A stretch of 64,000 nucleotides of DNA from an uncultured delta proteobacterium (GTDB lineage Bacteria > Myxococcota_A > Polyangia > Fen-1088): NCBI GenBank assembly GCA_963796685.1, contig CAWCMR010000025.1:1024001-1088000 (forward strand), in the 5' to 3' direction. Made by a program: the position numbers and the translations under genes. Below, in pieces: positions 30,757 through 32,631 of this stretch (position 1 is the first letter of the stretch; each line of letters opens with the position of its first letter). The notes under the pieces are model-generated. The model saw only the letters and a program-made list of their open reading frames with translations, did not search any database and had not been told where the DNA came from.

Positions 30757-31154
30757 AGGCACCTCCCCTCACCCTGTCCCTCTCCCCGGCTGCCGCCGGG
30801 GCGAGGGGACCTGCCTGTTGGCTCCTCTCTCGATCAGGGTCTTTGCGAGCTCGTCCGCCTGCACCCCTCGCCCACCCGTCCTCCTCGGGTCCCCTCGCCC
30901 CGCGCAGCGGGGAGAGGGACAGGGTGAGGGGCTTTCCCCCCCTTGCCCACCCGTCCTCCTTGGATCCCCATCGCCCACCCGTCGTCCTCGGGTCCCCTCG
31001 CCCCGCGCAGCGGGGAGAGGGACCGGGCGAGGGGTTTCCCCCCCTCGCCCACCCGTCCTCCTTGGATCACCCTCGCCCACCCGTCGTCCTCGGGTCCCCT
31101 CGCCCCGCGCAGCGGGGAGAGGGACAGGGTGAGCATCTGTGTTCCTAGTCAAGG

Positions 31155-32105
31155 TCAAATCTCCGTGGTTTGCCAGCGCGAGTTAGAGCGCAACATGGCG
31201 TTGAGGATGGTGAGCAGCTTGTGCATACAGGCGACGATGGCGACCTTCTTGAGCTTTCCTGCGGCGACTAGCCGAGCGTGGAATCTGGCGATGACTGGGT
31301 TGAAGCGTATGGCAGCTAGGGTGGCCATGTAGAGGACGTTGCGGACTTCGGTGCGGCCGCCCCAGATGATGCGGCGGCCGCGCAGGGTGCCGCTGTCCCG
31401 GTTGAGTGGAGCAACACCGATGAGGGCTGCGATCTGCTTGCGGTTGAGGGTTCCAGTCTCAGGGGCATGGGACAGGATGGTGCGAGAGAGGACGGGGCCA
31501 GCTCCTGGAACGCTTTGGATGATGTCGTCCTTGGCTTTCCAGACCGAGGAATTGCCGATGGCCGTGTCGATGTCGTTGTCCACCTCGTCGAGCTGCTTTT
31601 CGAGGTAGGAGATGGTCCTGCGGATGGCCCTCTGCACGCGCTTGGAGGGAGGGTCAGCGCTGAGACGGTTTTTCTCGGCAGTGATCATGTCGACCACCTG
31701 CCTGCGCCTGGCGAGAAGGGCGGCAAGCTCCTGGGTCTCTGCGTCGACAGGCGGGCGGACGGGTGGCCGTATTCGTTCGGCGAAAAGAGCGATCATGGCG
31801 GCGTCCAGGGCATCGGTCTTCGCGAGACAGCCGTTGGCCTTGGCGAAGTCGCGAACGCGTCTGGGGTTGACGACGACAGCGGGCAGGTTGGCAGCGAGGA
31901 GCGCCGCAAGCACGCGTCGTTCGAGTCCACCGGTGGCCTCAAGAACGATGAGGGTGACGTTCAGGGCGGCCAACTCTTTGCAAAGAGCGCGCACCGTGTT
32001 GTCTTGATTGGGGGTGGACCAGGCTCTTTTGGCCGGCAAGACATGGACGTCGAGCGTGGCCTTGGAGACGTCGATACCTACGAATGTGTCAGCTGTTGGT
32101 GTCAC
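31155..32105 (-). CDS. IS110-family DEDD recombinase/transposase (316 aa)
   Basis: 'GIDVSK', 'LEATG', 'KTDALDA', catalytic Ser in '[10 protein letters not shown]', 'GGR..VR..LYMA', 'ACMHKLL'; AAAGGAG RBS with GTG start. Confidence 0.95.
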
Positions 32106-32137
32106 GGGCTCCTTTCGCGAAGGACTTCTGCTCTTGG

Positions 32138-32372
32138 TATGCCCAGCCTTGCGGAGTATGCGGGCTCGAGGCCCTCTCATCTGTTCGGGCTGCTTGTGAA
32201 AGTCGACACGACGACCCTCGCTCACCCACGGTCTTTGTGACCTGAGGGGCATCGGTCTGTCGTGCCGTTGAATCTCGTCGTGCTCCTTCGCCTTTGGGGG
32301 CGAGCGTAGCCCAGCTTTGCTGGGCGAAGCGAGGGGGGACCGGGGGACTGCGAGCGAGAGCGAGCCAGTCCC
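32138..32372 (-). ncRNA. Predicted bridge RNA of the IS110 element
   Basis: 5' hairpins, then a target-binding loop (guides GATGCCCCT 32245-53 and GGGTGAG 32221-27) and a donor-binding loop (ACAGATG 32178-84, CGCAAG 32148-53), each closed by stems; ends approximate. Confidence 0.8.
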
Positions 32373-32631
32373 CCGTAAGATACAAGGGGCTTTCCCCCCT
32401 TGCCCACCCGTCCTCCTTGGATCACCCTCGCCCACCCGTCGTCCTCGGGTCCCCTCGCCCCGCGCAGCGGGGAGAGGGACAGGGTGAGGGGCTTCCCCCC
32501 CTTGCCCACCCGTCCTCCTTGGATCACCCTCGCCCACCCGTCGTCCTCGGGTCCCCTCGCCCCGCGCAGCGGGGAGAGGGACAGGGTGAGGGGCTTTCCC
32601 CCCCTTGCCCACCCGTCCTCCTTGGGCCTGT

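Follow-up and report, generated by a model that had tools for sequence, protein, structure and literature searches.

The window analysed here, a stretch of 64,000 nucleotides from the genome of an uncultured delta proteobacterium (GTDB lineage Bacteria; Myxococcota_A; Polyangia; Fen-1088; assembly GCA_963796685.1, contig CAWCMR010000025.1, positions 1,024,001 to 1,088,000 of the forward strand), contains an insertion sequence that is very probably a complete bridge-recombinase element of the IS110 group, of the IS621 type, which inserts at a host repeat matched by its own RNA guides. A first-pass annotation made from the sequence alone had proposed this IS621-type reading, and the protein domains, the CT cores, the two-loop RNA, the match between guides and flanks, the promoter and the repeat target all agree with it. 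IS621 is the founding bridge-recombinase system (Durrant 2024, PMC11208160; Hiraizumi 2024, PMC11208158). The element is an ordinary member of a kind known since 2024 and much studied in the years after, a new member and not a new system.

The element, its copies and their repeat target

All coordinates of the element are window positions, and all of its sequence is read on the minus strand; the features are collected in Table 1. The element runs from TGTATCTT at its 5′ end (from 32384) to ACAGATG at its 3′ end (last base 31134) and is located in the context AAAGCCC-CT-CACCC, with a window span of 31132-32386 when both cores are included. The coordinates of the first-pass annotation for these boundaries, for this target and for the donor ACAGATG-CT-TGTAT were reproduced exactly. 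The flanks turned out to be two parts of a single 102-bp host tandem repeat that is split by the element, and the reconstructed empty site is an intact repeat unit sequence (...AAAGCCCCTCACCC...).

In the genome carrying the window (7.3 Mb, 26 contigs, 64.6% GC), we found six uninterrupted full copies, which are 100% identical over 1251 bp, and a seventh full copy that is interrupted by a group II intron of 2075 bp. The uninterrupted copies all have the flanks ..CCC-CT/TGTAT...ACAGATG/CT-CACCC (slashes mark the ends of the element), with the same CT dinucleotide at both sides in every one of them and no longer target duplication. Their left halves are AACAGCCC, GACTACCC, GAAAGCCC, GGCAGCCC, GACAGCCC and CCTGGCCC. 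Comparison of all genomic copies with the target, a check that the annotation had suggested, therefore placed six of six uninterrupted copies at ..CCC-CT-CACCC and none at an unrelated sequence. The annotation had named the host repeat 'BoxC-like', which serves as a label only. It had also claimed that many repeats in the window carry this target, and the unoccupied target 11-mer GCCCCTCACCC indeed occurs 18 times in the window compared with 0.04 occurrences expected from shuffles; in the whole genome there are 121, compared with 17.6 expected from base composition. Most of the genomic copies belong to two GC-rich repeat families, in which the 11-mer continues with GCCTCGCTGCGCTC or with T(G/A)(T/G/A)CCCTCTCCCCG.

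A 75-bp tandem array of ~15 units (window 35718-36879) holds 11 of the 18 window 11-mers, none of them occupied, and the three intact targets adjoining the insertion (30922, 32482 and 32584) are vacant. Several relatives of the element in unrelated genomes (L047:1279-2448, G006:C36:10851-10978, L017, L018 and L032) carry guides for the near-identical motif CCCC-CT-C(A/T)CCC, so that GC-rich repeats resembling repetitive extragenic palindromic (REP) sequences look like a recurrent landing pad of this family branch. In the genome of another relative, L078 (G001, Dehalococcoidia), a related 1172-bp element is present in at least 32 copies that are 100% identical, together with at least eight copies of a 75-76% variant.

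The public sequencing data consisted of assembled contigs, and four of the 24 listed runs were examined. The element is present in contigs of three soil-metagenome DNA runs from three studies, with at most seven differences per aligned piece, and the flanks that are readable, in contigs of runs X1 and X5, are of the GCCTCGCTGCGCTC repeat type.

The recombinase matches PF01548 (DEDD_Tnp_IS110, RuvC-like DEDD; residues 9-149, 82.9 bits with E 2.7e-23, cutoff 29) and PF02371 (Transposase_20, the C-terminal Tnp domain with the catalytic serine; E 9.6e-17), and its matches among solved structures are the recombinases of ISCro4 (9t56, E 2.9e-31) and IS621 (8wt6, E 1.2e-26) only. Residues D12, E56, D98, D101 and S238-G239 align onto D11, E60, D102, D105 and S241-G242 of IS621, which are named as catalytic in PMC11208158 (numbering as in that paper; the PDB chain has an offset of +2), and D12, E56, D98, D101, S238 and G239 are invariant in an alignment of 15 homologues (A1). 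With both Pfam domains found and the five catalytic residues aligned with those of IS621, the DEDD plus Ser recombinase of the annotation stands. The protein collection contains at least 8000 relatives, and both domains are present in all 120 among the matches listed; the nearest relatives are metagenomic proteins with 90-99% identity, and proteins from genome records are 51-68% identical.

A two-loop RNA and its guides

For the analysis of the RNA, we compared relatives at 80 loci with 51-68% protein identity from Dehalococcoidia, Nitrospirota, Gemmatimonadales, Methylomirabilota and other groups. We aligned the 73 loci with at least 260 nt upstream with the window sequence (74 rows) and excluded 16 rows that lacked a clear TGTA start or ACAG..G-CT end motif; the 58 rows kept contained 48 distinct first loops, including that of the window element. 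Two of these, L030 and L059, were removed because their right-end motif match looked spurious, leaving 45 relatives, which together with the window element form an alignment of 46 RNA cores (A2). A covariance model, R1, was built from the 45 relatives with the window element excluded. When the relatives were aligned over 300 nt upstream of the gene, the conserved left terminus TGTATCTT emerged with variable DNA before it, and downstream of the stop codons they share (A)ACAGTTG as a conserved right terminus, with CT next to it.

Folding and covariance scoring of the left end, likewise suggested in the first-pass annotation, gave 103.7 bits (E 4.7e-24) with this family-built model, and the next scores in the rest of the window were 10.2 and 8.8 bits. 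Across the genome R1 found seven sites, one inside each of the seven full copies. Within A2, 97.7% of the 1142 cells of the structure are paired and changes on both sides occur in 18 of the 25 pairs; none of 500 shuffles reached the A2 value, and slid partners were only 35-49% paired. The target-binding loop that the annotation had drawn was recovered with its stem, inner hairpin and guides: the centroid fold contains its outer stem, CGGCACGAC(A)GACC / GGTC-GTCGTGTCG, as well as its inner hairpin, GGTC-ACAAA-GACC, and in the family alignment the outer stem shows double changes in 12 of 13 pairs, with 97.3% of cells paired. For the donor-binding loop, the proposed inner hairpin GGGC/GCCC (98.4% paired) and the guide ACAGATG held, and two other elements of the proposal called for correction. 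The outer stem CAGCC/GGCUG was rejected as the family register, as only 61.4% of its cells are paired in the 46 sequences compared with 98.3% for GCCC/GGGC, a register in which C-G to U-A changes occur in two sequences; the second element was a contiguous right donor guide CGCAAG.

In the bridge-RNA geometry described for IS621, left guides read like the top strand of the DNA and right guides are complementary, with the core included (Durrant 2024, PMC11208160). The guide segments of the target loop read GAUGCCCCU and GGGUGAG in RNA letters. The left target guide GATGCCCCT (32253-32245) agrees with AAAGCCCCT at 7 of 9 positions, and the 7-nt flanks of the window copy match their guides at 6/7 positions on the left and 7/7 on the right. 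GGGUGAG is exactly complementary to CT-CACCC in all six copies, and GCCC+CT agrees with the left guide in five of the six. The same correspondence was observed across the 45 relatives, in which the left flank matches the 5′ strand of its own first loop at a mean of 5.96 of 7 positions (permuted flanks 4.20, maximum 4.67) and the 3′ strand agrees with the right flank at 6.58 of 7 (permuted 4.27). None of 2000 flank permutations reached the observed match on the left or on the right, and the match is perfect (7/7) in 15 relatives on the left and in 30 of the 45 on the right.

The donor loop mirrors its own right terminus at 7/7 positions in all 45 relatives, across six variants of the terminus. 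The common form is ACAGTTG, a few relatives have ACAGATG, ACAGACG, ACAGCTG, ACAGGTG or ACCGTTG, and the ACAGATG of the window element is one such paired change of terminus and loop. On the other side of the loop, two short segments are complementary to parts of the left terminus, CAAG to CTTG and AUAC, located 5 nt upstream of CAAG, to GTAT; all 46 sequences have the same CAAG and AT. We infer that the right donor guide is better read as discontiguous CAAG + AUAC than as contiguous CGCAAG, which would fit the discontiguous pairing described for IS621.

When the ends are joined via one CT, TTGACT and TATCTT are brought together with a 17-nt spacer, forming the putative junction promoter TTGACT-N17-TATCTT that the first-pass annotation had correctly recognized. 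The hexamer at the -35 place of the right end has at least 5/6 matches to TTGACA in 31 of the 45 relatives, and 41 of them have TATCTT, TATCTC or TATGTT as the hexamer of the left end. In the mechanism we propose, the element would be excised as a circle in which the joined ends form this promoter, and transcription from it would yield the left end as the two-loop bridge RNA and then the recombinase mRNA. In the target-binding loop, GAUGCCC-CU would share the sense of the left target half and GGGUGAG would be the complement of CT-CACCC; in the donor-binding loop, ACAGAUG would correspond in sense to the right terminus and CAAG/AUAC would be complementary to the left terminus. The DEDD/Ser recombinase would then exchange strands at the CT core, resulting in insertion at (G)CCC-CT-CACCC, the motif of the two abundant GC-rich host repeat families. 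Such activity, that is, circle formation, transcription and recombination, appears probable from the sequence because the copies are identical and intact.

Several observations weigh against this reading. For the 280-nt left end as a whole, the free-energy z-score is weak, at -1.64, and for this reason the case for the RNA is built on covariation and not on energy; moreover, the minimum-free-energy structure disrupts the second loop, and the centroid retains both loops. The left guide fits the natural left halves only over GCCC+CT, with mismatches at the three distal positions in most copies, and 5 to 7 of 9 positions agree between this guide and the native left halves. The two bases after ACAGAUG are AG and not CU, so that the left donor guide shows no evident pairing with the core. 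As the left terminus TGTAT hardly varies, covariation gives no test of the right donor guide. No joint of right end to left end, as in a circle, was found in the contigs of the four runs, although contigs cannot show absence, and the RNA-library contigs over 32161-32310 give no strand, start or end and could be derived from DNA. Finally, an Rfam search returned no family at threshold, and the sole nearby match was sub-threshold and on the opposite strand.

This match was to sX15 (RF02234) and extends across both loops (window 32126-32277, plus strand); its 29.4 bits (E 0.025) stay below the gathering score of 55. For sX15, PMC3300014 describes asX7 as a complementary partner and a Stenotrophomonas genome with ten homologues, an arrangement that fits a multi-copy IS110 left end, and the sX15 family may represent antisense RNA to an IS110 bridge RNA. 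In RNA run X16, the summed contig depth was 130-380 over 32270-32404 (the 5′ leader) compared with 10-30 elsewhere, and one RNA contig joins 32382 back to 32300, a step back of 83 within the leader, with three extra letters. The excess depth and this joint may come from other repeats or relatives.

The host repeat could instead be chosen mainly by recognition through the protein or the DNA structure (e.g., repeat hairpins), with the RNA matches being secondary or one half of a 'dual match' like that reported for ISPpu10. Every insertion lies in hairpin-rich repeats, the non-core positions of the left half agree with the guide at only 4 of 7 in the window copy and at no more than 4 in the other five, the perfect 11-mers in the same tandem array are vacant, and a target DNA stem-loop is reported to be required in a related element (preprint 10.64898/2026.03.19.712850). 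We nevertheless regard this explanation as improbable: the guide segments follow the flanks across 45 relatives with unrelated targets, and the six insertions have three different downstream contexts with only the 11-mer in common. It is still harder to believe that the copies are inert relics of past spread or segmental duplication in which the bridge system no longer works, as the lack of a circle joint or clear transcript in the contigs and the seven truncated remnants in the genome might suggest, given that six copies are 100% identical over 1251 bp in different flanking DNA, with intact reading frames and catalytic residues, and that the remnants are 95-100% identical to the element.

The second hairpin of the 5′ leader marks the position of a group II intron in two other copies. 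This intron has a length of 2075 bp (C11:75849-77923 and C25:1543397-1545471; window equivalent ~32329/32330), starts with GTGCG, encodes a reverse transcriptase with YADD and is present in 11 copies that are 99.8-100% identical. In the two left ends it is inserted directly after the hairpin CCCAGCAAAGCTGGG, antisense to the bridge RNA. Other copies of the intron likewise follow hairpins, and two of them lie in the host repeat family that is targeted by the insertion sequence.

Table 1 Features of the IS110-family element, its insertion site and its remnants; positions with a C prefix refer to contigs of the genome, all others to the window
Feature	Position	Strand	Remarks
IS110-family insertion sequence	31134..32384	-	1251 bp without cores; 100% full-length identity at 6 places
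Left CT core	32385..32386	-	after left target half AAAGCCC (32387-32393)
Right CT core	31132..31133	-	then right target half CACCC (31127-31131)
Host 102-bp tandem repeat, right part of split array	30865..31133	.	repeat analysis
Host 102-bp tandem repeat, left part of split array	32385..32625	.	vacant targets at 32482, 32584
TATCTT, -10 half of putative junction promoter	32377..32382	-	left end
5′ leader, long, structured	32271..32376	-	hairpins GGGGGACUGG...CAGUCCCCC and CCCAGCAAAGCUGGG; longer than in most relatives
Bridge RNA, two-loop core	32136..32270	-	R1, model positions 1-135, end to end
Target-binding loop	32204..32267	-	outer stem, internal loop, inner hairpin GGTC-ACAAA-GACC; centroid fold and covariation
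Left target guide GATGCCC+CT	32245..32253	-	same sense as left target half plus core
Right target guide GGGTGAG	32221..32227	-	reverse complement of CT+CACCC
Donor-binding loop	32141..32190	-	outer stem GCCC/GGGC, inner hairpin GGGC-CUCGA-GCCC; family covariation
Left donor guide ACAGATG	32178..32184	-	identical to last 7 nt of right end
Right donor guide region GCAUACUCCGCAAG	32148..32161	-	putative assignment
Recombinase gene, 316 aa	31155..32105	-	GTG start 32105-32103, AGGAG upstream; TGA stop 31157-31155
TTGACT, -35 half of putative junction promoter	31147..31152	-	right end
Remnants keeping left terminus	C25:1109421-1109562, C8:212939-213081, C25:234099-234236, C25:1543315-1545526		
Remnants keeping left terminus	C1:32343-32444, C25:486409-486469, C11:109216-109258		

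Truncated left ends

All seven remnants in the genome have the left terminus and its CT junction, and none consists of a right end only. They end at element positions 43, 61, 106, 138, 138, 142 and 142, and the core CT of the guide DNA is located at 139-140. Four of the seven hence stop at the DNA encoding the left target guide (positions 138-142) and continue with the right target half. The joints of C25:1109421 and C8:212939 read ...GACCGATGCCC-CT-CACCC, after which the right half of the host repeat follows; C25:234099 and C25:1543315 have this joint too, with minor losses, and a contig in run X6 contains a similar, imperfect joint. Two of the four exact GATGCCCCTCACCC 14-mers in the genome are such scars. 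At the other two exact sites (C5:354702 and C25:1597156), the upstream bases (CAGACC / GGCC) resemble the stem adjoining the guide, and these sites may be very short remnants or native perfect targets.

Eight other genomes were checked for left-anchored fragments, and four of them (including G002, G004 and G006) yielded six fragments, two of which end at the guide core of their own element. The fragment in G006 ends with ...GACCGTT-TCCCC-CT-CACCCTGCCC, in which the element's own guide core precedes a right target half; the flank on the left of this fragment, ATTCCCC-CT, agrees with that guide. The fragment in G004 ends at most 1 nt from its own guide core, at a decayed joint. In G002, the end lies slightly 3′ of the first loop, at a different internal CT, and is followed by the element's own right half, AACGC, and three further fragments end elsewhere with no similarity to a right half. 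No left-anchored fragment was present in G003, G005 and G008, and in G001 any fragments are masked by 40 matches of full or nearly full length. In G007, two pieces of diverged relatives are right-anchored (464-1185 and 867-1185; 79-82% identity), which counts against a strict 'left ends only' rule.

The chances appear about even that these joints result from the recombinase-RNA complex itself, which would sometimes recombine the internal guide-coding site with the right junction, a built-in self-truncation that would also plant ideal landing pads. Inside the element, the DNA that encodes the guide is by necessity a perfect left target half with its core, oriented like the termini and with an unrelated right side; if this site reacted with the right junction, three of the four guide segments would find a match. 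The product would lack everything downstream and leave a 140-nt solo left end, the scar joint of which, GATGCCC-CT-CACCC, fits the guides better than any native site. Partial circles of IS110 elements with one true terminus and a recurrent internal endpoint, for which a half match suffices, are described in two preprints (10.64898/2026.08.14.744561; 10.64898/2026.08.31.748434). Guide-coding DNA is not named as a recombination site in the literature titles and abstract openings searched, nor is it named as the internal endpoint in section 9 of 10.64898/2026.08.14.744561, although published supplementary lists of IS110 orthologues or internal endpoints may already include this element or this endpoint.

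Replication slippage, microhomology-mediated deletion (CTCA, CCC) or passive spread with the host repeat could also have produced the truncated left ends independently of the recombinase, and we consider this a real, if rather doubtful, possibility. The sequence CTCA is common to the internal site and the right junction, three remnants in the own genome and four of the six fragments in other genomes end elsewhere, and two of the four joints at the core are short by at least 3 nt, with the joint in the X6 contig being similarly imperfect. Such processes have to be reconciled, however, with four of seven endpoints in the genome falling within 5 nt of one position out of 1251, with the recurrence of the guide-core endpoint in elements of two other genomes that have different guide sequences, and with the continuation of each guide-core endpoint into that element's own right target half.

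Two further ideas were considered and set aside. The 140-nt left part might have been an older, independent repeat that hosts a shorter element; the TGTATCTT terminus, the -10 box and the 5′ stem strand of the first loop lie inside this part, and the idea was rejected because these features are conserved and covary across phyla. The solo left end is also unlikely to be an independently mobile mini-element, as its circle joint would carry the left-target half and not the left-donor half.

Relation to known systems and meaning

With IS621 of E. coli, as described in PMC11208160 and PMC11208158, the window element shares the CT core at both sides, the DEDD plus Ser recombinase with its five aligned catalytic residues, a left-end RNA whose target-binding loop is followed by the donor-binding loop, left guides of the same sense and complementary right guides, a predicted sigma-70 promoter at the junction and the insertion into a repetitive extragenic element. 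It differs from IS621 in its distant protein (phmmer E 1.2e-26), in its target, which is GCCC-CT-CACCC compared with ATCAGGC-CT-AC, in the contiguous 7 nt of its right target guide compared with 4 nt, in the much longer 5′ leader (~118 nt) before the first loop and in its host, a soil bacterium with 64.6% GC. The first-pass annotation had pointed to a different target specificity, and the target is indeed unlike that of IS621; as a distinguishing feature this is unremarkable, since every IS110 orthologue has its own target.

The closest named relative on plasmids is an ISMno7-like IS110 element of Methylobacterium nodulans (annotated as IS110-like element ISMno7 family transposase), which was compared by protein alone; the two proteins are 52% identical over 97% of the length. 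In Pseudomonas putida, ISPpu9 and ISPpu10 (PMC12288879; 10.64898/2026.03.19.712850) are likewise IS110-family elements that insert into REP sequences and are present in multiple copies. A hybrid junction promoter is described for ISPpu10, and partial modules and remnants are reported (PMC12288879). ISPpu9 differs in its extra small-RNA modules (Ssr9 and Asr9) and its A/B boxes, none of which were seen in the window element. The preprints on partial circles deal with circles and large expanded loci, whereas the truncated left ends reported here are chromosomal scars of a minimal element.

Here, we present one more natural orthologue of the bridge recombinases, with a 7+7-nt target reading GCCC-CT-CACCC in a high-GC soil host, which as such is not surprising. 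Its relatives are spread over Chloroflexota, Nitrospirota, Gemmatimonadota and others. Such an orthologue is useful for catalogues of natural guide/target pairs, and the alignment of 46 RNAs together with model R1 derives the guide code afresh, cleanly and independently, from public genomes. Of greater weight than the orthologue itself are the truncated left ends. If they are made by the recombinase, they would provide natural genomic evidence of partial-match recombination, and they would also serve as a warning to engineers that a bridge-RNA gene in cis is a half-site for its own enzyme.

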